Shown in pieces: positions 14,491-39,975 of a stretch of 39,975 nt of DNA. A model generated the notes under the pieces. The model worked only from the letters and a program-made list of their open reading frames with translations, was not told where the DNA came from and did not search any database. The stretch is from a virus (taxonomy: Duplodnaviria; Caudoviricetes). How positions within the stretch are numbered: position 1 is the stretch's first letter; each line of letters begins with the position of its first letter. The DNA is taken from IMG/VR virus record IMGVR_UViG_3300043447_000338, positions 1-39,975 of that record, one strand, 5' to 3'. A program made the translations under genes and the position numbers.

Positions 14491-14610
14491 GTTAGTACTT
14501 ACTTACTTACACCGCACGGCGGCCCTAAGTTAGTGGGCGCTAACTAACTTAGGGCCCCAAGTTGGTGCGTAGCGTGGCCCTAAGTTAGTGGGCACTTACT
14601 AACTTAGGGC
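14491..14610. repeat. GTTAGT-N8-ACTAAC palindromes, including two near-identical 13-14-bp-stem hairpins
   Basis: GGCCCTAAGTTAGT-GGGCGCTA-ACTAACTTAGGGCC (14521-14556); GCCCTAAGTTAGT-GGGCACTT-ACTAACTTAGGGC (14577-14610); degenerate copy at 14491-14510. Confidence 0.85.
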
Positions 14611-14647
14611 TGGGTTAGTGGGGTTTTGTGTAACAAGGTGTTACGGC

Positions 14648-14930
14648 GGTGGCACCTGCCACCGGGCGGGCGGGGGCGGGTAAGTTGTTGTTTTGTAAGG
14701 GTTTTGCCCCCGTGGCAGGCCATTTTGGCGGTGGCAGGTGGCAGGTGGCAGGTGCTAAAAGTTGCCAAAACTGCTGTGCGTGTGCGTGCGCGCACACATA
14801 GGCAGGCGTACATACACACATATTACTTTATAAATTTAACTGCCACCTGCCACCCCTACACAAAACACGCCTTACAAAACAACAAGTTAGCGCGGTTACG
14901 GGTGCCAGTGGCAAGTTGTGGCAAGTGCCC
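14648..14930. other. Putative replication origin: inverted iteron arrays around an AT-rich core
   Basis: GGTGGCA tandem repeats (14730-14753) and inverted TGCCACC copies (14840-14854); perfect 16-bp inverted repeat 14685-14700/14870-14885; AT core 14821-14840; lies downstream of the primase-helicase gene. Confidence 0.55.
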
Positions 14931-14959
14931 CCACCTTACCACCCGCCACCAACAGGCGT

Positions 14960-14983
14960 AAAAAAGCCCGCGCAGGGCGGGCT
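14960..14983 (-). terminator. Intrinsic terminator after the 106-aa gene
   Basis: Minus strand AGCCCGC-CCTGC-GCGGGCT followed by a T run. Confidence 0.8.
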
Positions 14984-15004
14984 GGTGTGGTAGTGGGGGT
15001 GTGC

Positions 15005-15325
15005 TTACTCTGCCGCAGCTACAAGATAGCCCTTACGCACCGCGTAGCCCACAAAGTGGCTAGGTACGCCCTGCTCAACAACCTGGGCCACTGTGGCGGG
15101 GCCCTGTGCCAGTGCCTTACCAATAATGGCCCACCATGCGTTGTTGTGCTCACAAGCCACCTTGTAGGGCTTAGGGCCCATTACAACGCGCAAGGTTGCG
15201 TTTTTAGGCTGCTTAGCTACCTGGGCCTTAACTGGCACGCTTGGCGCTGCCAAAAGCCCGCTAAACGGGGTTGTAGGTGCCACAACAGTTGCTGCCTTAA
15301 CTTTGCTGTTTGCTTTAGTTGCCAT
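15005..15325 (-). CDS. Small basic protein (106 aa), putative DNA-binding
   Basis: SD AAAGG, own terminator; contains no Asp and only 3 Glu; C-terminal similarity to 26671-27123. Confidence 0.7.
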   Translation of the reverse strand: MATKANSKVKAATVVAPTTPFSGLLAAPSVPVKAQVAKQPKNATLRVVMGPKPYKVACEHNNAWWAIIGKALAQGPATVAQVVEQGVPSHFVGYAVRKGYLVAAAE

Positions 15326-15494
15326 TTTGTGCCTTTACATTGCCACCAAACAGGGCGGCTAGCTGGTGCATACCACTTGGTTGCACAGTTGCTATTATGC
15401 ACTCAGGCACCATTAGTACCATAAGGGTAAACCCTACAAATTGTAATAATGTGTAACTGCGCTATTGCCACCACACGCCCGCATGGTGTAGGCA

Positions 15495-15556
15495 CTTGTT
15501 AGTGGGCATTTACTAACAAGCCCATTGCCCTTATTTGTTGGTAAGCACACACTAAC
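15495..15556. repeat. Two further GTTAGT-N8-ACTAAC-type palindromes
   Basis: CTTGTTAGT-GGGCATTT-ACTAACAAG (15495-15520) and GTTGGT-AAGCACAC-ACTAAC (15537-15556). Confidence 0.7.
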
Positions 15557-18105: not shown

Positions 18106-18473
18106 GCACCACTAAACTCGAACCTGGAGACCGCGTGAAGACTTACAGCGGGCGGGCTACCACCATTGTCGGCCACACCCCGAACCATTTTCGTGAACAA
18201 TACCCAATCACAGCTTGGGCACAAGCTCCCGCAGACCCAGAGAATTTTTCTGAGGAGTTTGACGGGCATGAGTCTCTTACTTTGACAAAAAGCGGGGATT
18301 TCTTTCTTGGAACGCCCGGCGGCCTTTCTCTTGATCTTGACACTGTTGTTAAGTTCCGAGACGCTATGCTAACCCTGGCTACAGACCCCAAAGGCAAGTG
18401 GACTGACCTGCCAGAAGAGACATTCCTAGAGATTGCTGAGGCTGTGAGGGATTACCTGCTGTTGCCAAAATGA
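18102..18473 (+). CDS. Hypothetical protein
   Basis: 123 aa, SD GGGAG, ATGA overlaps at both ends. Confidence 0.6.
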   Translation: MSTTKLEPGDRVKTYSGRATTIVGHTPNHFREQYPITAWAQAPADPENFSEEFDGHESLTLTKSGDFFLGTPGGLSLDLDTVVKFRDAMLTLATDPKGKWTDLPEETFLEIAEAVRDYLLLPK

Positions 18474-18841
18474 CCAGGATTAACTGCGTTCCTGTGGAAG
18501 AGTTGTCCGACAAGCACTTAGGGGCCGAATACCGCGAACTGCCCCGAGTGTTCGCCCTGGCGCAAGCTGCCTACCTGCGCGGAGAAGACCCTAACACCTA
18601 CCCGCAAAAGTACGTGCTGGGTCCAGGGCACGTAAAGTTTTTCTACGACCGACTGGGATGGCTCACAATTAGATTTCATCAAATTGTGAATGAGTGTTTA
18701 GCCCGTGGGCGTGTTTGTAATTTTAGAGCCGCTCCACGAGTAACAAATCCCCCTGAGTGGTACAGGGCGTGGGAGCCCACTCCCGAAGCGCTGGCGCTTA
18801 ATCGCCAGAGAATAGCAGATAGAAAAGGAGGAAATATGTAG
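18470..18841 (+). CDS. denV: Pyrimidine-dimer DNA glycosylase / AP lyase (T4 endonuclease V family)
   Basis: MTRINCVPVEELSDKHLGAEYRELPRVF (catalytic N-terminal Thr and Glu), LG.GHVKFFYDRL. Confidence 0.92.
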   Translation: MTRINCVPVEELSDKHLGAEYRELPRVFALAQAAYLRGEDPNTYPQKYVLGPGHVKFFYDRLGWLTIRFHQIVNECLARGRVCNFRAAPRVTNPPEWYRAWEPTPEALALNRQRIADRKGGNM

Positions 18842-19122
18842 TGGCATTCTTTACCGTCAATCTTTGGCTAGACAGTCCAGATCTTAAATCAATCAATGAA
18901 AGGTTAAAATACATCATGGCTACACAAGCTCAACTCGCTGCTCAATTGACTGCTCTTGCTACTCAAGCAGAAAAAGCTAAGGCGGAAGTCACCACCAAAC
19001 TGGCAGACTTGCAGACAGCATTGGATAACGCCGGCTCCACCACACCAGAGGTAGACGCTGCCCTGGCCGCGTTGGCTGCCGCTGTGCAAGCTACGGACGA
19101 TATCGTCCCTGACGTAGTCTAA
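18841..19122 (+). CDS. Ala-rich coiled-coil hypothetical protein
   Basis: 93 aa; heptad pattern ending DDIVPD; start uncertain (GTG 18841 or internal ATG). Confidence 0.55.
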   Translation: MAFFTVNLWLDSPDLKSINERLKYIMATQAQLAAQLTALATQAEKAKAEVTTKLADLQTALDNAGSTTPEVDAALAALAAAVQATDDIVPDVV

Positions 19123-19124
19123 AC

Positions 19125-19808
19125 GTGATAGCTCTACTGTTCTCTGGAGGCAAAGACTCTAGGCTATTGCTAGAGGGCTTTGCCCCTTTTTTAGACCAAA
19201 TTACAGTCGTTTGGGTAAACCCAGGCGACTACCTGCCTGATGATGAGGCGTATGTAAGAGACTTACTTAGCCAATGCCCGCACCATACAATCATAGACTC
19301 CGATGTCAAAAGTCACATCAAAGCTTGTGGCTGGCCTGTGGACGTTGTGCCTGTAAACTGGACCGTGCCCGGACAAATAGGACATGGCAAGCGACCTTTT
19401 ACGTTTCAACCGTACACTGAATGCTGTGCTCACAATATTTGGAAGCCACTGAATGACTGGATTGCAGCCAATGGCGTGACTAAGGTGTACACAGGCCAGC
19501 GGAACGACGAAGAGTTCCACGACCGTAGACGGGAAGTGAAATCTGTTACCCACAATGGCGTAGAGTGGGTGAGCCCACTTGCTAACTGGACAGAGGCTGA
19601 GGTGTGGGCTGCCCTGCACCGCTTGCAGCGGCAAAAGGGCTTGCAGGTAGCCCCTAGCTATTTACGAGGCGCCACCGCCAGCGTAACATGCGCCCACTGC
19701 ACCGCCTACAGGCCCAAGGCCAGGGGGCGCGTACTGCCCCAGCAAATACAGTCTACAGTGGATGCCGCGCTACTTGCCCTCCACTTAGCAATTAAGGAGT
19801 CCATGTAA
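19125..19808 (+). CDS. PAPS-reductase-family (PP-loop) protein
   Basis: FSGGKDS PP-loop, CC pair, GQRNDE, PLANWTEAEVW and CAHC. Confidence 0.85.
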   Translation: MIALLFSGGKDSRLLLEGFAPFLDQITVVWVNPGDYLPDDEAYVRDLLSQCPHHTIIDSDVKSHIKACGWPVDVVPVNWTVPGQIGHGKRPFTFQPYTECCAHNIWKPLNDWIAANGVTKVYTGQRNDEEFHDRRREVKSVTHNGVEWVSPLANWTEAEVWAALHRLQRQKGLQVAPSYLRGATASVTCAHCTAYRPKARGRVLPQQIQSTVDAALLALHLAIKESM

Positions 19809-20665
19809 TGTTCAAGCCAATGCTCGCCTGCGAGTTAGAAGATCCCACAAAGCTCAAATTTCCCGTGCTTGTCAGCCCTAAGTTAGACGGGATTCGTTGT
19901 TTGATGTTTGCGGGGGTTGCCTACTCTCGCAATATGAAGCCTATACGGAACAGGTTCATTCAACAACAGCTCAAAGAGCTAGACAACCTGGATGGAGAAT
20001 TGATTGTGGGCTCCCCCAAGGCACCTGACTGCATGAACGCCACGCAGTCTGGAGTGATGTCTGCAGATGGAGAGCCAGCATTCACTTACTGGACGTTTGA
20101 TTCTCCACTGGCGAATGTGCCATTTGCGCAGAGGCTGCGGCAGGCAGACGCCTGCAATATTAGAGTTATGCAGGTGCCCCATGTACTTGTGAATTCTGTG
20201 GAGGAGTTGCTTGAGTATGAAAAAGTGATGCTTGAGGAGGGGTATGAGGGTATTATGGTGCGCTGCCCCCACGGCCCCTACAAGCAGGGCCGCAGCACCG
20301 CCCGGGAAGGCTGGCTATTTAAACTCAAACGGTTTTCGGACGGCGAGGGTGTGGTTGTTGGCCTAGAGCCTGCTAAGCACAACACAAATGTGATGACGCG
20401 AGACGAGCTCGGCCGTGCTAAACGCTCCACCCACGCGGCGGGCATGGTGGAGCTAGATATGATTGGCACGATTTTGATTCAAACTGATGATTGGGGACTC
20501 CTACGCCTGTCCCCTGGCATCATGACGCACACGGAGCGGGCCAGTTACTGGAAAAACTATGGCGCTCTAATTGGACAAGTGGTACACTGGCGCAGCTTTG
20601 GCTACGGGGTAAAGGACAAGCCAAGGTTCCCCAGGTTCTACGGCATTAGAGGAGATCACGTATGA
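19808..20665 (+). CDS. lig: ATP-dependent DNA ligase
   Basis: Motif I KLDGIR, DGEL, GYEGIM, LFKLK and PRFP. Confidence 0.92.
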   Translation: MFKPMLACELEDPTKLKFPVLVSPKLDGIRCLMFAGVAYSRNMKPIRNRFIQQQLKELDNLDGELIVGSPKAPDCMNATQSGVMSADGEPAFTYWTFDSPLANVPFAQRLRQADACNIRVMQVPHVLVNSVEELLEYEKVMLEEGYEGIMVRCPHGPYKQGRSTAREGWLFKLKRFSDGEGVVVGLEPAKHNTNVMTRDELGRAKRSTHAAGMVELDMIGTILIQTDDWGLLRLSPGIMTHTERASYWKNYGALIGQVVHWRSFGYGVKDKPRFPRFYGIRGDHV

Positions 20666-25366: not shown

Positions 25367-26576
25367 ACAGGCCCTCGTCATCTGCCCTGTGCGCCCCATG
25401 TGGCGGGTGTGGCCCAACCAAAAGAATGCTTACGCGGACTTTGAACACCTTACGGTTGCCGTGGCCCATGGGGCTGATAAAGACGAGGTGCTGCGCTCGC
25501 AAGTAGACATCGTTTGTATTAACCCAGAGGCGTTGACATGGCTGTTCGCATCCCCAGAGAGGGAGAAGTATGTCAAAGCTAACTTTGATGTCCTCATAGT
25601 CGACGAGAGCACTTACTTTCAGAACACGCAAAGCCAGCGGTTCAAGCTACTGAAGAAGGTGGTGCCTATCTTCAAGCGGCGGTACATCCTCACAGGCAGT
25701 ATGATTCATAAAGACCTGCTGGGGCTGTTTGGCCAGATTTACATTCTAGATGAGGGGCAGTCGCTAGGGAGGTACATCACCAAGTTTAAGACTGAATACT
25801 TCTACCCCTCCGGCTGGGGCGGCTACGAGTGGCGCCCTATGGAGAACGCAGAGGCCCGCATCATAGAGAAGATACAGCCTTTAGTCTGCAGAGCGGAGAT
25901 TTCTGGCGTGGTGGACCTACCTGAGCTTATTGTGGAAGACATCTTTGTGGAGTTGCCTGCCCCCGCACAGGTGCTCTATAAGAAGATGTGGGATGAGCTG
26001 CTCGTGTCTGTAGGAGAGGGAGAGGTGGTGGCGGCGAATGCTGCCGTAGCCTCTGGCAAGTGCAGGCAAATCGCAAATGGAGGCATCTACGTGTCCCCAA
26101 GTGTGTGGGAGCCTGTACATGATGAGAAGATGGCTGCGTTGGAAGAGTTACTTGAGCGCCTCTGTGGTGACCCTGTGCTTATCACGTATGAGTTTCAATT
26201 TGATCGCGAGAGAATTGCGGAGCGGTTCAAAGTGCCATGTATCAGCACAGGCAATGCTAAGAAAGACGCAGAGTACATAGACCTTTTCTCTAAAGGACTG
26301 CTGCCTGCTGTAATGGGCTCGCCAAAATCTATCGCGCTAGGAATTGACGGGTTGCAAAACTCATGCAATCACATCGCTATGTTCGGCGTGCCGTGGAGTC
26401 TGTTGGACTACCAACAGACCATTGCCCGTGTACAGCGCAGCGGCAGCAAAGCCAAACACTGCTATCTGCACCGTATTCTGGCTGCGAATACTGTGGATGA
26501 GAGAGTCATCAAGGTTCTGGAAAACAGAGAAGCGACACAGGAGGCGTTTATGGGGCTATTGATTCCCCTTGAGTGA
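25197..26576 (+). CDS. SNF2-family (SF2) helicase
   Basis: GAGKT, VDES, LTGS, GIDGLQ, QTIARVQRSG. Confidence 0.88.
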   Translation: MTQLPPLPFWKPRSFQAQAVKLGVSQACLGLLFPAGAGKTSTMYAILSILKQKKLIKQALVICPVRPMWRVWPNQKNAYADFEHLTVAVAHGADKDEVLRSQVDIVCINPEALTWLFASPEREKYVKANFDVLIVDESTYFQNTQSQRFKLLKKVVPIFKRRYILTGSMIHKDLLGLFGQIYILDEGQSLGRYITKFKTEYFYPSGWGGYEWRPMENAEARIIEKIQPLVCRAEISGVVDLPELIVEDIFVELPAPAQVLYKKMWDELLVSVGEGEVVAANAAVASGKCRQIANGGIYVSPSVWEPVHDEKMAALEELLERLCGDPVLITYEFQFDRERIAERFKVPCISTGNAKKDAEYIDLFSKGLLPAVMGSPKSIALGIDGLQNSCNHIAMFGVPWSLLDYQQTIARVQRSGSKAKHCYLHRILAANTVDERVIKVLENREATQEAFMGLLIPLE

Positions 26577-26589
26577 TAGTAAAATTAAA

Positions 26590-26618
26590 TTGCTATTTTA
26601 CAAATGAACAAGTATACT
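26590..26618 (+). promoter_or_regulatory. Putative sigma70 promoter
   Basis: TTGCTA-N17-TATACT with an AT-rich upstream element; followed by the palindrome CAGTGC-GATAAT-GCACTG (26626-26643). Confidence 0.6.
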
Positions 26619-26670
26619 GTCTCTACAGTGCGATAATGCACTGCTCACCAACTAACGGAGTTATACAATC

Positions 26671-27123
26671 ATGGCAAAAGGTAAAAAGTTTGCTTCGCAA
26701 GAAGCTGTTGTAGAGGTTGCGGCTACGGAGGCAGCCCCTAAGGCTGCGGCCAGCCGGGGCCCCCGTGGCACTGTAGAGACCGCAGTGATTACTGTGCTTG
26801 TGGGCGACAACCCCAAGCGCGCAGGTAGCAAGGCCCACACAGTGTTCAGCCACTATCAGTCTGGCCAGACTATCGCCGCTTTTGCAGACGCCCTGGCCAC
26901 TGCTGGCCTGGGCAAGGAAGCTACACCTAACCTCGTGTACGACGCCAAGCACGGCTACATCGCCATTGAAGGCTACGACCCAGGCGAGATCGTGGTAAAA
27001 GCTGCCAAGGAGCCAAAAGCCCCTAAAGAAGCAAAGGCCCCCAAGGCTAAGAAAGAGAAGAAAGTAGCCGCTGCGGAAGACGCCTCCGCAGTTGAGGCTG
27101 CTGTACAAGAAGAAACGATGTAA
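26671..27123 (+). CDS. Lys/Ala-rich putative DNA-binding protein with a histone-H1-like tail
   Basis: NPKRAGSKA core; KAAKEPKAPKEAKAPKAKKEKK tail; own promoter and terminator. Confidence 0.7.
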   Translation: MAKGKKFASQEAVVEVAATEAAPKAAASRGPRGTVETAVITVLVGDNPKRAGSKAHTVFSHYQSGQTIAAFADALATAGLGKEATPNLVYDAKHGYIAIEGYDPGEIVVKAAKEPKAPKEAKAPKAKKEKKVAAAEDASAVEAAVQEETM

Positions 27124-27207
27124 AGAAGAGGGTGGCCGTAACTCCCCGGCTGTGCAAGCGAGCTCTGGCAGCACTCGTCCTTCGCAACGCTCCATAAATT
27201 ACATATC

Positions 27208-27232
27208 AGCCCCACTGAGCAGTGGGGCTTTT
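27208..27232 (+). terminator. Intrinsic terminator
   Basis: AGCCCCACTG-AG-CAGTGGGGCT-TTT. Confidence 0.7.
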
Positions 27233-27248
27233 GTTTGGAGAAATTAAA

Positions 27249-28028
27249 ATGGAAGTGTTTATTCTAACGCATGGGCGGGCTACAGGGGCGCAGCAGCACA
27301 CCGCAGCCGCATTGCTCGATGCCGGCATAGCTTTCAAGTATGCGGTGCAAGAGAGCGAACTGCCCAAATGGTCTTGGTGTAGTGCAGAGATAGTAGTCCT
27401 GCCTCCACACATAAAAGATGTTTCCGCCACTCGTGACTATCTTGTTCATGATGTGGGTGGGGACGCCCACATCTTTATGTTTGACGACGATCTGCGATTC
27501 GCTGCCCGCAGAGACGACGATGCCACTAAATTCACCCCAGCAACTTCCGCAGATCTATTTTCTGCCCTTGAGCGAGTCAATATAAATTTGTCCATCAATC
27601 CGATGGTTGGGCTGGGCGCCCGTGAGGGGGGCAACCGCGTCACCGATCAATGGGTGTATGAGACTCGTATCATGCGAGCCTTTGGGCTGAATAGAAACTA
27701 CCTGCGTCGACACGAGATAACATTTGCTCCACTCAAGCTAATGGAAGACTTCCACGTCAATTTACAGATACTTGAGTCTGGGAAAACTACAAGCGTCTAC
27801 AATCTTTTGGTGACCGATCAAGTAGGCGGCTCTAATTCTGCTGGCGGGTGCAGCACCTACCGCACGCCTGAACTACAGGAAGCTTCCGCCAATCTGCTGG
27901 CAGCCCGCCACCCCGGTGTTGTGAAAGTGGTGAAGAAAACCACCAAGGGCGCATGGGGCGGGGGCACCCGTACTGATGTGATTGTGCAGTGGAAGCAGGC
28001 TGCCAAATTTGCGAGGAACAGAGTATGA
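27249..28028 (+). CDS. GT-A glycosyltransferase of the TET-associated (TAGT) / base-J glucosyltransferase-like family
   Basis: FILTHGR, SATRD, FMFDDDLRF (DxD), MEDFHVNLQIL, GGCSTYR and V.WK motifs; SD GGAG, start ATG 27249. Confidence 0.8.
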   Translation: MEVFILTHGRATGAQQHTAAALLDAGIAFKYAVQESELPKWSWCSAEIVVLPPHIKDVSATRDYLVHDVGGDAHIFMFDDDLRFAARRDDDATKFTPATSADLFSALERVNINLSINPMVGLGAREGGNRVTDQWVYETRIMRAFGLNRNYLRRHEITFAPLKLMEDFHVNLQILESGKTTSVYNLLVTDQVGGSNSAGGCSTYRTPELQEASANLLAARHPGVVKVVKKTTKGAWGGGTRTDVIVQWKQAAKFARNRV

Positions 28029-28873
28029 GAGCCATGAATGCTAGTGATCTTGCCTATTGGATTGTTGAACGTGACCTTATGCGTGAGCGGAAAGAATATC
28101 CAGACAATCCACGCCCAGAATGGAAGTGTGGCTGGAGTGATGACCCCCACATGGGGCTGATTCGCTATTGCAACGTGCGCCGTGAGGATGACAAGGTAAC
28201 CCGCTGGCTTGCCAAGCACTGGCGCCCACAGCACAACAGCATGTGGGAGCTGACCCTGGCACGGATGCTAAACCACATCCCCACTCTAGAAATTTGCCTG
28301 CCCCTGCTACAGTGGCAAGACCCATTGAAGGGAGTGTTGGGCGAGCTAAAGCTGCTGCGCGCTACGGGGGAGAAAGTCTTTACTTCCGCCTACACCATCA
28401 GCACGGCAGGCAAAAGCATGGATAAGCTTGACTACGTGGTGGACTGGGTGGTGGGGGCAGTGAAGTGCAGAGAGATTGCTAGTGGCTACAAGCCTAAGCG
28501 GCTGGCGGAGGCTGCCGCGTGGCTGGAAGATTTTGATGGGTTGGGTAGCTTTTTGGCTGCCCAAGTAGTGGCGGACGCTAAAAACACCCCCAGCAACCCC
28601 CTAAAAACCGCGCCAGACTGGCAAACATGGTGCGCCCTAGGCCCAGGTAGCTTGCGCGGCCTTACGGCGCTGCGTGGGCGTAACGTAACGGCAAGGTATT
28701 TCCAAAAAGAAATATTCTCCGCCTGGAGAGAAGTCAAACCTATGCTGCCTACCCATCTACAAGACCTGCACATGCAGGACTTCCAAAACTGTCTCTGTGA
28801 GTTCTCCAAATACGCCAAAGCCTTGAACGGAGAAGGGAGGCCCCGCAATGGCTATAACGCTGGGAGAGGCTAG
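28025..28873 (+). CDS. aGPT-PPlase clade 1 / 5hmdU-DNA-kinase helical-domain family (HhH-glycosylase-like fold) thymine hypermodification enzyme
   Basis: WIVERD..R, D....YCNVRREDDKVT.W, GLGSFLAAQVVAD, GPGS.RGL and DFQNCLCEFSKY. Confidence 0.8.
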   Translation: MRAMNASDLAYWIVERDLMRERKEYPDNPRPEWKCGWSDDPHMGLIRYCNVRREDDKVTRWLAKHWRPQHNSMWELTLARMLNHIPTLEICLPLLQWQDPLKGVLGELKLLRATGEKVFTSAYTISTAGKSMDKLDYVVDWVVGAVKCREIASGYKPKRLAEAAAWLEDFDGLGSFLAAQVVADAKNTPSNPLKTAPDWQTWCALGPGSLRGLTALRGRNVTARYFQKEIFSAWREVKPMLPTHLQDLHMQDFQNCLCEFSKYAKALNGEGRPRNGYNAGRG

Positions 28874-29042
28874 ACTATGGGGAGAGGTACACGGGGCATT
28901 GAATCTCGCAGTGTCTTGGTATGATGGCACTATCTCACTTCACCAATTCATAAGTGAGACTGAAATGGATGTGTTCTGTAAGAAACATCAGTTAACTTTT
29001 ATTGAGGAGAGTAGCAATGACGACAGCAATATTGAAGGTTAG
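28848..29042 (+). CDS. Hypothetical protein within the modification cluster
   Basis: 64 aa, SD GGGAGG; overlaps both neighbours. Confidence 0.5.
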   Translation: MAITLGEARLWGEVHGALNLAVSWYDGTISLHQFISETEMDVFCKKHQLTFIEESSNDDSNIEG

Positions 29043-29985
29043 GAACGTAGAGCAAGCTTTGTCCGACGGCTTTTGGTGGCTGCGCGCAGCCGGGGTGCCC
29101 GAAAACAGCCGTAACGGCCCCGTTCTGGTGTCTCCAGGCCCTGTGGTTACGGAGTATTCTCACCCCACAGAGCGCGTACTATTCAATGCCCGTAGAGATG
29201 CGAACCCCGTATTCCACTTGGTGGAGGCTCTGTGGATGTTGGCTGGCTTGAACGATGTCACGTTCTTGGAGCCATACAATGCGAATATGCGTACCTACGC
29301 AGAGCCTGACACAGACATTATTCATGGCGCGTACGGCTACAGGTGGCGCACCCTGTTTAATGTGGACCAGCTGACCCTAGTGGTGAATCAACTGGTGGCC
29401 GACAGGGAAACGCGGCGTGCCGTTGTGCAGATGTGGTCTGCTGCGGATGATCTATACAAAGATAAGGTGGATGTGCCATGTAATACGCAAATCTATTTCG
29501 ATTTGCGTGGTGGCGTGCTGAACATGGCTGTGTGCAACCGCAGTAACGACATGCTGTGGGGCGCCTACGGCGCAAACGCGGTGCACTTTAGCGTGTTGCA
29601 GGAGGTTATAGCTGCCGCCGTGGCTGCCCCTGTGGGGGTGTACAGGCAATTTAGCAATAACTTCCACGTCTACACTGAGAATGAGATGGTGCAAAGCTTC
29701 CTAGAAGTGCCACCATCCATATCATTTACAGCATACCCAGGCGGAGCTGTGCCCCTTATTCAGCCATCAGAATCCTGGACTAGCTTTCTGGCAGATTGCC
29801 GAAAGCTATTCTACACGGACACCGGCGTTTTTGCCACAGAATTTATCCAAGACATTGCCTCTCCACTGATGCGGGCATATATCTATAGGAAGGAACGGGG
29901 AGTACTACCCCCTTACGTGTCCAGCATTCCCACATGTGACTGGAAACTGGCATTTCAAGAATGGGTAGCAAGGAGAGAAGCATGA
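29017..29985 (+). CDS. Thymidylate-synthase homologue, probable dUMP hydroxymethylase
   Basis: RDANP.FH..EALWML.G, HGAYG.RWR, DQL, TRRAV, PCN (catalytic Cys), RSNDMLWGAYGAN (Asn, consistent with dUMP specificity), NNFHVY; SD GAGGAG. Confidence 0.85.
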   Translation: MTTAILKVRNVEQALSDGFWWLRAAGVPENSRNGPVLVSPGPVVTEYSHPTERVLFNARRDANPVFHLVEALWMLAGLNDVTFLEPYNANMRTYAEPDTDIIHGAYGYRWRTLFNVDQLTLVVNQLVADRETRRAVVQMWSAADDLYKDKVDVPCNTQIYFDLRGGVLNMAVCNRSNDMLWGAYGANAVHFSVLQEVIAAAVAAPVGVYRQFSNNFHVYTENEMVQSFLEVPPSISFTAYPGGAVPLIQPSESWTSFLADCRKLFYTDTGVFATEFIQDIASPLMRAYIYRKERGVLPPYVSSIPTCDWKLAFQEWVARREA

Positions 29986-30428
29986 CTGATTTTGTAAAAA
30001 TTGCCGACATCGCCACAGAAATCGTTAGACTTCTTGAAGAGAAGGGTAGGTTCTACGGCGACTCCTGGCGCAAACGGGGCGGGCCGGGCGCCTTTATGGT
30101 GATGGCCCGTAAGTGGGACCGTATAGAGAACATCTGCGGGCCCCAAGGGTATGACATTTTCAAGGCACTGGACGCAGACTCTGGTGGGGTGCGAGATGAC
30201 ATTCAAGACCTCATCGGGTATTTGCTGCTGATTCTTGAAGCTACACGTCGTGGCTCTATAGCTGATAACTTAGTTCCTCACAAGGTTACATCTTCAGAAA
30301 GTACCGTAGAGGGGTACACTATTGAGGGGTATTACGGTGATGGGACTCTGCTGTACAAATGCAAAACCTGCAAGAAAGAGATAAGAGCTAATTCAGAGAC
30401 ATTAGTACACACTTGCACTCCTAGCTGA
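29982..30428 (+). CDS. Nucleotide-modification-associated domain 1 (DUF1599-like, all-alpha NTP pyrophosphatase-like) with a C-terminal Zn ribbon
   Basis: K...YGDSW.KRG..G, RKWDRIEN, DDIQDLIGY; C-terminal CKTC...HTC. Confidence 0.7.
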   Translation: MTDFVKIADIATEIVRLLEEKGRFYGDSWRKRGGPGAFMVMARKWDRIENICGPQGYDIFKALDADSGGVRDDIQDLIGYLLLILEATRRGSIADNLVPHKVTSSESTVEGYTIEGYYGDGTLLYKCKTCKKEIRANSETLVHTCTPS

Positions 30429-30482
30429 CCCACATATACTGGTGGTGCCTGCAATAAGTAGGTGCCACCAGTCCTTATTATC

Positions 30483-30650
30483 ATGAAAAACTTCCACGTA
30501 TTCTTTGCAGTCTTCCACCCAAGCTACGCACCATTCTACAAAGTAGAGATGGTGCTGCGGGGTACAGTTACCGCAGCGTCTGAAGCTCACGCCCTACGCA
30601 TTGCCAAGCAAAAATTCGGCGGAGCGCCTGTTGTGGGAGATGCAAGATGA
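30483..30650 (+). CDS. Hypothetical protein
   Basis: About 55 aa, V.AASEAHALRIA motif, ATGA coupling to the next gene. Confidence 0.45.
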   Translation: MKNFHVFFAVFHPSYAPFYKVEMVLRGTVTAASEAHALRIAKQKFGGAPVVGDAR

Positions 30651-38831: not shown

Positions 38832-39975
38832 GCCAGCACCTTACTATAGTCTACCTTCAAAACACCATTCGCATCGACTGCCACAGCGTCCGGCATAATC
38901 TCGCGCACCTGCTGCGCAATCACGCCCAGCTCTTGATTGTCACTGCCGATGAATCGGTAGCTACAAATCTCTACACCGTTGGACAACGTAAACAGGTGTT
39001 TCACGTCTCTTTTCAGTCGAGCGTCAGAAAACATAAGCATCATGGCTGCTGTACTTGCAAGTCCAAGGCCAGCCTGGGTATTGGATGCAGCCGCTTGGTT
39101 AGCGATATTTGCCGCGTTGGCATCCGCTCCATATTGGCTATTCGCTACTCCCATATAATCAACTCCAGAGGCTCTGCCCGCCTGGGTACTGCCACCAAAC
39201 CCTGCGGGCATGCCAATTTGTGAACCGCTCAACAACGCGTTCAGCTCATTGATGCCCTGGGTGCGGCCCTGTAATGCCTCAGCAAGCTGCTGTTGTCGGG
39301 TCATGTTCTGGAAGTTTGCACTTTGCATTGATTGCTGAAATGCCTGCTGCTGGGTTGCGTTGTTGAGTGCCGCACCCTGCAACCCTTGTTGGAACTGCTG
39401 GTTGCCCTGCCCAAACATCAGTGCAGCTTCCTGCTGCCCGGCGCCAAAGGCCAATAAATTCTCACGAGCGTTCTGATCTTGCAAATCTCTAGACGCATTC
39501 CGCCACGCAGCAGAGCCTCGAGTCACCCCCATGTTAGAGAGTTGCGCCTCCAACTGCTGCTGTCGTTGAATTTGTATGGGCTGCTGAAAGCCCAACGCTG
39601 CCCCCTGGGCCGCAGCACGCCACCCGTTAACATCAGGCACGCTCGCCCGTGGTGCAGATGCGGGGGCTGGCCCAGTTTCTGACGGGCCAGCAACGAATGA
39701 GGGGATTGGCATACCCGAGTACATGTTCACAGGCCCTGCTGCAGAGCCTGAGTACATGTTTACCGGCCCCGTGGTGGGGGATGGGCTGGTGGCCCAGGGC
39801 GTTGCGCTGGCGAACACCCCCTGCATGGAGGGGGTAGGCTGCTGAGCGGGCGGCTGCTGTGGCATCTTCCCTGCTGTACCGTCCAATGTTCGGATCGTTG
39901 GCTCAGCTCGCATCTCGTTCGCTGGCCCGTACCCGCCCGCATTGAATCCACCCCCGGACGCGAGCCCCAGATTAG
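38828..39975 (-). CDS. C-terminal part of the ejection/pilot protein with a peptidase S74-like intramolecular chaperone domain
   Basis: SDARLKRDV...GVIAQQV....P.AV....G.LKVDYSKV; continues in frame from ATG 439. Confidence 0.85.
   Translation of the reverse strand, partial: NLGLASGGGFNAGGYGPANEMRAEPTIRTLDGTAGKMPQQPPAQQPTPSMQGVFASATPWATSPSPTTGPVNMYSGSAAGPVNMYSGMPIPSFVAGPSETGPAPASAPRASVPDVNGWRAAAQGAALGFQQPIQIQRQQQLEAQLSNMGVTRGSAAWRNASRDLQDQNARENLLAFGAGQQEAALMFGQGNQQFQQGLQGAALNNATQQQAFQQSMQSANFQNMTRQQQLAEALQGRTQGINELNALLSGSQIGMPAGFGGSTQAGRASGVDYMGVANSQYGADANAANIANQAAASNTQAGLGLASTAAMMLMFSDARLKRDVKHLFTLSNGVEICSYRFIGSDNQELGVIAQQVREIMPDAVAVDANGVLKVDYSKVLA
39838..39975. repeat. Terminal direct repeat / circular assembly overlap, copy 2
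   Basis: Matches 1-138 with one mismatch. Confidence 0.95.

Follow-up and report, generated by a model that had tools for sequence, protein, structure and literature searches.

A kinase-free phage gene cassette predicted to glycosylate part of the 5-hydroxymethyluracil in its DNA

How might a phage decorate 5-hydroxymethyluracil (5hmU) in its DNA when neither a 5-hmU DNA kinase nor a clade-2 amino acid:DNA transferase can be detected in its genome? The question is raised by a cassette of five overlapping plus-strand open reading frames (ORFs) at positions 27249-30428 of IMGVR_UViG_3300043447_000338, a virus of the Caudoviricetes (Duplodnaviria). The stretch that we analysed, referred to as the window, comprises 39,975 bases and is the whole genome of an uncultured freshwater phage. 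Its completeness is rated at 98%, and an exact 126-bp repeat (1-126 and 39838-39963) joins the genome ends, consistent with a circular, complete assembly. In order, the cassette encodes a GT-A glycosyltransferase (GT) of the TAGT family (27249-28028; 259 residues), a clade-1 aGPT-PPlase, a family now named HMUDK_hel (28025-28873; 282 residues), a 64-residue protein (28848-29042), a thymidylate synthase (TS) homologue of the M6 type (29017-29985; 322 residues) and a DUF1599/Nmad1-like helical protein (29982-30428; 148 residues). An initial annotation had described these genes as translationally coupled; their coordinates and overlaps of 4 (ATGA), 26, 26 and 4 (ATGA) nucleotides were confirmed. 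It had further proposed that T is replaced by 5hmU carrying a sugar, possibly elaborated by the helical enzyme, to give base J or a novel base. This interpretation is partly supported. We consider it somewhat better than an even chance that the cassette works without a kinase, 5hmU being incorporated into the DNA and the GT glycosylating part of it directly. Of the profile searches that the initial annotation had called for, those with TAGT, HMUDK_hel and Thymidylat_synt returned matches above the curated cut-offs.

The TS homologue is the predicted source of 5hmU. It matched Thymidylat_synt (PF00303, E = 3.7 × 10−18) and phrog_5131 (E = 1.9 × 10−99), and its closest annotated relatives were enzymes of the PaMx11/M6 type (41-45% identity; 43% to M6 gp58). 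In the alignment with Escherichia coli ThyA, residues D152, C155, D178 and N187 correspond to L143, C146, D169 and N177, respectively. N187, the Asn after RSND..WG that had been pointed out earlier, aligns with ThyA N177 once a gap of one residue is allowed for; in MilA this position is Asp. Both N187 and the catalytic C155 were invariant in 16 aligned TS sequences, and the same four diagnostic residues were present in 130 of the 131 distinct TS sequences from the loci examined below, the single exception being truncated. Papers cited here by accession were accessible in part, and statements attributed to them refer to those parts. According to PMC13326640, Asn at position 177 goes with dUMP as the substrate, an acidic residue at position 143 with hydroxymethyl products and D169N with 5-hydroxy-dCMP synthases. 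Because D152, D178 and N187 fit these rules, the protein reads as a dUMP hydroxymethylase like M6 gp58, in agreement with the initial annotation. Two other activities were considered for this protein and rejected: N187 and D178, which is still Asp, speak against dCMP-directed or 5-hydroxy-dCMP chemistry, and D152 speaks against canonical dTMP synthesis as its main reading. Very probably, the TS homologue would convert dUMP to 5hmdUMP, host kinases would raise this to the triphosphate, and the DUF1599-like protein probably lowers dTTP/dUTP. Phage PolA would then incorporate the 5hmdU triphosphate in place of T. Host kinases have been proposed to be sufficient in phage SH-Ab 15599 (PMC13458397).

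The assignment of the last ORF comes from ESM Atlas features alone (score 0.95; 219 of 256 features), with DUF1599 named on 25% of the cluster members. To this extent the earlier Nmad1-like label stands, and it found no counterpart in Pfam, where the ORF matched no family at E ≤ 0.1. The core of the similarity covers approximately residues 1-95. The protein is a putative nucleotide-pool enzyme, resembling dTTP/dUTP pyrophosphatases. A related Nmad1-like domain is fused to the TS of Brevibacterium phage LuckyBarnes. The 64-residue ORF gave no Pfam (E ≤ 0.1) or PHROG match; it belongs to a cluster of 25 sequences sited between the helical gene and the TS gene, and some of the related phages have it in this slot.

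To the GT we could assign a family and a fold. The TAGT profile PF20691 matched with E = 1.9 × 10−14 (54.5 bits against a cut-off of 27.5) and phrog_842 with E = 3.1 × 10−34. The structural model (mean predicted local distance difference test, pLDDT, 94.4) matched GT-A folds with Z-scores of up to 13.7, and its top matches to viral models included TAGT proteins and a T-even beta-glucosyl-HMC-alpha-glucosyltransferase (E = 1.3 × 10−16). R10, D79-D81 (DDD) and E166-D167-F168 were invariant in 107 aligned sequences (107 of 120 listed homologues, the query included), which bears out the DDD and ED motifs noted earlier. Together these residues form the R..DDD..ED[YF] motif of phage DNA GT-A enzymes, which glycosylate hydroxymethylpyrimidines in DNA and resemble JGT, the base J glucosyltransferase (bioRxiv 2023.12.21.572611). 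The proposed link to JGT is therefore upheld at the level of shared catalytic motifs. Searches of the Protein Data Bank (PDB) by sequence, using profiles of the GT, the helical enzyme, the last ORF and the GT-B-like family described below, returned nothing significant. A single-sequence scan of viral contigs with the GT recovered no relative; a profile scan did find relatives.

Which acceptor and which sugar would this enzyme use? In T6-like phages, TAGT probably attaches a second glucose (PMC13390438). The Pfam and PHROG scans revealed no other GT in the window. Since no upstream GT was found whose sugar could be extended, the acceptor is most simply the hydroxyl of 5hmU in DNA. It is likely that the TAGT enzyme would O-glycosylate a share of the 5hmU from a nucleoside diphosphate sugar, yielding glycosyloxymethyluracil; this prediction draws on family chemistry and gene co-occurrence. 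The sugar cannot be named, because related phage GTs add many different ones: the products on 5hmC include hexose, HexNAc, uronic acid, heptose and Kdo (bioRxiv 2023.12.21.572611). Base J in particular is for this reason not predictable, and that the product is the beta-glucose form, base J itself, seems to us rather unlikely. No TET/JBP dioxygenase, the enzyme that the base J pathway would call for, was found among the 28 (Pfam) and 49 (PHROG) ORFs scanned.

In kinase-dependent hypermodification, clade 2 acts on phosphorylated 5hmU, and genes for both activities are undetectable here. The 5-hmU DNA kinase profile PF18748 had no match in the genome, and the clade-2 transferase profile (ADDT, PF18724) had none at E ≤ 10. 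The kinase search caught four of six positive controls, failing on those of phiW-14 and 15599, so the absence of a kinase leans on a Walker-A motif scan, in which such motifs appeared only in the terminase, the primase-helicase and one 541-residue ORF of the late region. Among 54 records searched, the kinase profile matched four, all positive controls, and the transferase profile matched six. Five of the six were controls, and the sixth was a weak match to the clade-1 gene of phiJL001. Neither profile matched any of the 44 other IMG/VR records. PF18746 (clade 3) had no match anywhere, controls included, and is uninformative.

The second gene of the cassette encodes the helical enzyme. It matched PF18723 over the whole domain (residues 8-267; E = 4 × 10−26; 92.5 bits against a cut-off of 25). 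C258-E259-x-x-K262 was invariant in 45 sequences of the family and is also present in ViI, SP10, phiW-14, M6 and 15599. The clade-2 metal and catalytic motif ETxxC reads QNCLC here. A structural model (pLDDT 92.7), built without the rows of M6, phiJL001 and LuckyBarnes, is all-helical and resembles helix-hairpin-helix (HhH) glycosylases. Its top fold match was PaMx11 gp46 (Z = 9.5; root-mean-square deviation 4.2; 209 residues aligned), and the HhH glycosylases tie with it (Mag1, Z = 9.1). Foldseek returned nothing at E ≤ 0.001. A profile comparison with the gp46 type paired Cys258 with Cys247 of gp46 at a non-significant E of 0.13; Cys247 attacks C6 of the base (PMC11472151).

The glycosylase-like fold admits the explanation that 5hmU is glycosylated as we propose and that the helical enzyme edits what is left over, excising or dehydroxymethylating 5hmU, or serves as a non-catalytic DNA-binding helper. 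The tie with Mag1, a model that has no cofactor domain and a genome that encodes an ATP-dependent ligase are all compatible with such a role. Glycosylases use a Lys/Asp catalytic pair, whereas the helical family has an invariant Cys-Glu-x-x-Lys. Isotope evidence, as cited in PMC8989533, further speaks for conversion in situ, and we regard this explanation as decidedly improbable.

We examined the neighbourhoods of related genes from both ends of the cassette. The best 80 of 170 IMG/VR stretches matched by the GT profile fell into 48 clusters at 80% GT identity, all of them with a TS gene. In these 80 loci we found TS in 79, the helical gene in 76, a DUF3310-like gene in the slot of the last ORF in 77 and the upstream 150-residue gene described below in 68; local profiles detected no kinase and no clade-2 gene. 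The order GT, helical gene, TS was kept in 55 of 63 distinct loci. Four loci were without the helical gene: two were cut short, one held a fragment at the record end and one, G020, was complete. A search with the TS yielded another set of 80 loci. The helical gene was present in 79 of them and adjoined the TS gene whichever decorating gene was nearby; ten of the 80 had a GT and three a kinase.

These counts bear on the idea, close to that of the initial annotation, that T is fully replaced by 5hmU, which receives a sugar from the GT and is then elaborated, in this sugar-modified form, by the helical enzyme. The 4-nucleotide overlap between the first two genes and their conserved order are what such a partnership would lead one to expect. 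The helical gene, however, is far more faithful to the TS gene than to the GT gene, and two complete genomes, G020 (L140, 8995-11349) and MW202897, have GT and TS without it. It accompanies kinase cassettes and also occurs where there is no GT, and in this genome clade 1 is the only member of the family, with no kinase. On these grounds we rejected sugar extension as a function of the helical enzyme and regard the earlier suggestion that it elaborates the sugar as unlikely. It is likewise doubtful that T is replaced in full, since canonical T is packaged together with a modified base in those studied phages that have both clade 1 and a TS of this class. Taken as a whole, the idea strikes us as quite improbable.

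The same counts bear on whether the GT acts on DNA at all. Its structural neighbours include cell-wall and protein GTs, and most phage GT-A contigs in the survey of Pyle lack a nearby modification gene, as far as the accessible part of that survey goes. The GT might therefore target a virion protein or the host surface, leaving the cassette to yield at most plain 5hmU or T. The tight translational overlap, the linkage to a hydroxymethylase-type TS in nearly every locus and the TAGT-specific motifs all argue otherwise, and make a protein or surface target very improbable.

If the helical enzyme does not serve the GT, what does it do? In a FastTree phylogeny of clade-1 proteins, built from 76 representatives of 172 sequences with ViI as the root, copies associated with kinases, with GTs and with no GT are intermingled. 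Such a pattern would be expected if the protein partners the hydroxymethylase and not a decorating enzyme. Clade 1 is found in ViI, SP10, phiW-14, M6 and SH-Ab 15599 and is absent from SPO1 and Shanette. Virions of SP10, phiW-14, M6 and ViI contain T and a hypermodified base but no 5hmU (PMC8989533), and SH-Ab 15599 packages dT plus dapT with a dT/dA ratio of 0.77 (PMC13458397). The route from 5hmU to T has been stated to be unknown (PMC5889632). Because clade 1 occurs in all five of the phages that contain T and a hypermodified base, and is absent from SPO1, we put it forward as a candidate for the 5hmU-to-T step, a suggestion that we hold tentatively and to which we give slightly less than an even chance. 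The enzyme would leave the sugar alone; Cys258 would act on unglycosylated 5hmU, and a hydride donor would complete the conversion to T. As in clade 2 and TS, the reaction would proceed through a C6 adduct and an exocyclic methylene. Virion DNA would then hold T and glycosylated 5hmU, and the likely purpose of the modification is to shield the DNA from host restriction nucleases.

The invariant Cys also suits another assignment, loosely like the chemistry of SP-15 and Carin-5: the helical enzyme might be a kinase-independent transferase that adds a small hydroxyl- or amine-bearing group to 5hmU, with the GT glycosylating this linker. The fold family is common to the clade-2 transferase gp46, the GT-associated copies carry a QNCLCE-type motif that differs from the E-containing motif of M6, and in SP10, a producer of glutamyl-T, a clade-1 domain is all that could be detected. 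Clade 2, however, needs a phosphate leaving group, and no kinase was found; GT and TS occur without the helical gene; and in PMC8989533 hypermodification was shown for clade 2 on phosphorylated 5hmU, the clade-1 protein gp55 of M6 being dispensable and not listed as a transferase. The general statement in the initial annotation that aGPT-PPlases hypermodify 5hmdU thus holds for clade 2 and not, on that evidence, for clade 1. We regard a linker-adding role as improbable. A protein encoded beside the kinase/clade-1 fusion of SP10, gp185 (896 residues; L189, 6652-11296, gp185-gp186), had no Pfam match above the cut-off and is a candidate for the missing clade-2-type activity of that phage.

Several points weigh against the reading that we favor, in which the GT acts directly on 5hmU and clade 1 restores T. 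The functions of the cassette genes are predicted from sequence and models. The characterised TAGT enzymes covered here use 5hmC or a sugar already in place (the second glucose of the T6 type), so that activity on 5hmU in duplex DNA is an extrapolation. The related loci are kin and not independent samples. With no dCMP deaminase or HD nucleotidase detected in the genome by small local profiles, and no dNMP kinase in the Pfam and PHROG family scans, the level of substitution may be low. For the T-restoring step, the correlation draws on phages whose composition is known, five positive and one negative. In SP10, which makes glutamyl-T, no clade-2 gene was detected, and the glutamate transferase may be the clade-1 domain. 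The metal ligands Glu and Thr of gp46 correspond to Gln and Asn in the helical enzyme (by the non-significant profile match), and the helical model contains no apparent domain that could bind a nucleotide or flavin as the reductant. With no kinase to activate it, a bare hydroxyl would have to leave. Finally, the accessible part of PMC8989533 does not describe T formation in lysate reactions that included clade-1 proteins.

The surveyed loci differed in the genes that accompany TS and GT. Most TS loci have a gene resembling S-adenosylmethionine (SAM) methyltransferases upstream in place of the GT gene, as in L052 (111-962) and approximately 60 similar loci among L014-L083, where clade 1, TS and an Nmad1-like gene follow it and neither a GT nor a kinase lies nearby; one possibility is that these phages make 5hmU methyl ether. 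Ten loci (L005, 8525-10900; L007, L011, L096, L107, L108, L110-L112 and L157) carry an ADP-heptose-like set downstream of the cassette (a PfkB kinase, a SIS isomerase, a cytidylyltransferase-like protein and a HAD protein), which suggests heptose or another dedicated sugar donor for T modification; the window has no such set. In L005 (4594-5502) and L011 (5831-6742), the TAGT slot is taken by a 300-residue family with 128 homologues. This family is weakly GT-B-like: PF13524 matched 7 of 77 members, and hhalign to T4 beta-GT gave E = 0.035 (probability 1.5). A radical SAM/SPASM gene adjoins the GT gene in L080 (5896-6960), L127 (9723-10781) and L142 (8042-9004) and could provide a sugar-tailoring step. 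An FkbM-type methyltransferase gene adjoins it in 4 of the 80 GT loci, for example L114 (8365-8997), L137 (8098-8997) and L144 (9677-10423), where sugar O-methylation is possible. LuckyBarnes (L003, 6989-8600) has two TAGT genes in tandem, which would suit a disaccharide product. The TS gene is in two pieces in one record (L090, 9212-10304; L105, 11373-12465) and whole in the near-identical L091; the split is probably a sequencing error.

Upstream of the cassette lie genes for PolA, a PD-(D/E)XK nuclease, a VRR-NUC-like protein, a SNF2 helicase and a Lys/Ala-rich protein of 150 residues (26671-27123, plus strand; Pfam and PHROG), the last of which received no family name from ESM Atlas. A terminator-like hairpin (27208-27229, plus strand) separates the 150-residue gene from the cassette, and a 15-pair hairpin follows the last gene (30438-30472, plus strand); both come from a consensus scan and are not evidence of function. 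Promoter-like sites occurred at chance level only. A public contig of 39,867 bp is identical over 26500-30600 (0 differences); it may be the source sample and is not independent. No RNA holder of the sequence was listed. Palindrome frequencies relative to expectation were 0.57 for CCGG, 0.69 for GGCC, 0.87-0.98 for AT-only 4-mers and approximately 0.75 for ACGT, GATC and TGCA; these counts had no unmodified-phage control and were not used as evidence. Elsewhere in the genome, the early region (18470-20665; Pfam and PHROG) encodes an Endonuclease V (denV)-like glycosylase, a PAPS-reductase-like protein and the ATP-dependent ligase. A gene-poor stretch between the divergent terminase and primase genes (14491-15556) holds two palindromic 35-nucleotide copies that are 94% alike (14521-14555 and 14576-14610), a 20-nucleotide motif present five times and TGGCAGG-type repeats, possibly an origin or packaging or regulatory sites.

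The cassette shares its TS class, the adjoining clade-1 gene and a downstream small nucleotide-pool gene with M6, PaMx11, ViI, phiW-14, SP10 and SH-Ab 15599 (PMC5889632, PMC8989533, PMC13458397). In contrast to the kinase-dependent phages, a TAGT gene stands here in place of the 5-hmU DNA kinase and the clade-2 transferase, so the predicted product is an O-glycoside instead of an adduct with an amino acid or amine. Kinetoplastid base J synthesis (JBP1/2 and JGT) is likened to it by the GT-A motif and by the predicted glycosylation of 5hmU in DNA; the two differ in that 5hmU would here come from a nucleotide-level hydroxymethylase and not from oxidation of T by TET/JBP enzymes, and would serve defence and not regulation. 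The TET-associated phage GT-A enzymes (bioRxiv 2023.12.21.572611) and the beta-glucosyl-HMC-alpha-glucosyltransferase of T2/T6 belong to the same TAGT family and fold. They use 5hmC or glucosyl-5hmC, whereas the partner in the cassette points to uracil, with no TET or C5 methyltransferase. SP-15, Carin-5 and YerA41 likewise place sugar on a T-type base in phage DNA (PMC12686479, PMC13697223), but theirs sit on a linker and phosphate and require a large gene block, whereas a single GT would act here on the hydroxymethyl oxygen.

The gene set itself is common and in print as annotation, and its parts belong to known families. Cultured carriers of GT, clade 1 and TS are phiJL001 and LuckyBarnes, and HTVC023P-type pelagiphages have TS, aG/PT-PPlase1, a 5'-deoxynucleotidase and beta-glucosyl-HMC-alpha-glucosyltransferase together (PMC9599517); in all three the match is by printed or GenBank annotation. 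The accessible part of the pelagiphage account gives no product, no remark on the absent kinase and no clade-1 role. Our literature search, with most subscription papers outside its reach, found no demonstration of directly glycosylated 5hmU in phage DNA or of a clade-1 function. It is likely that the cassette reading has been predicted before. Iyer et al. (2013) reportedly drew TAGT genes beside TS genes in phages.

If it were shown, directly glycosylated 5hmU would be the phage counterpart of base J chemistry, reached through other enzymes upstream. A small GT able to label 5hmU in double-stranded DNA would also be of use as a reagent. In the studied phages clade 1 comes together with kinase and clade-2 genes; here it stands apart from them, which makes the 5hmU-to-T question, open since approximately 1980, testable with three genes. 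Should clade 1 prove to restore T, the two complete genomes that have GT and TS without it would be natural controls expected to keep free 5hmU, and no system would allow a cleaner demonstration of the reduction than this minimal cassette. A broader generalization, which we consider doubtful, is that base J or other sugar-5hmU nucleosides (heptosyl where ADP-heptose-like genes follow the cassette) are made from a nucleotide-level hydroxymethylase, without TET or kinase, in a large family of phages with genomes of 40-60 kb, and that clade 1 would reduce unphosphorylated 5hmU to T in the DNA of these phages.

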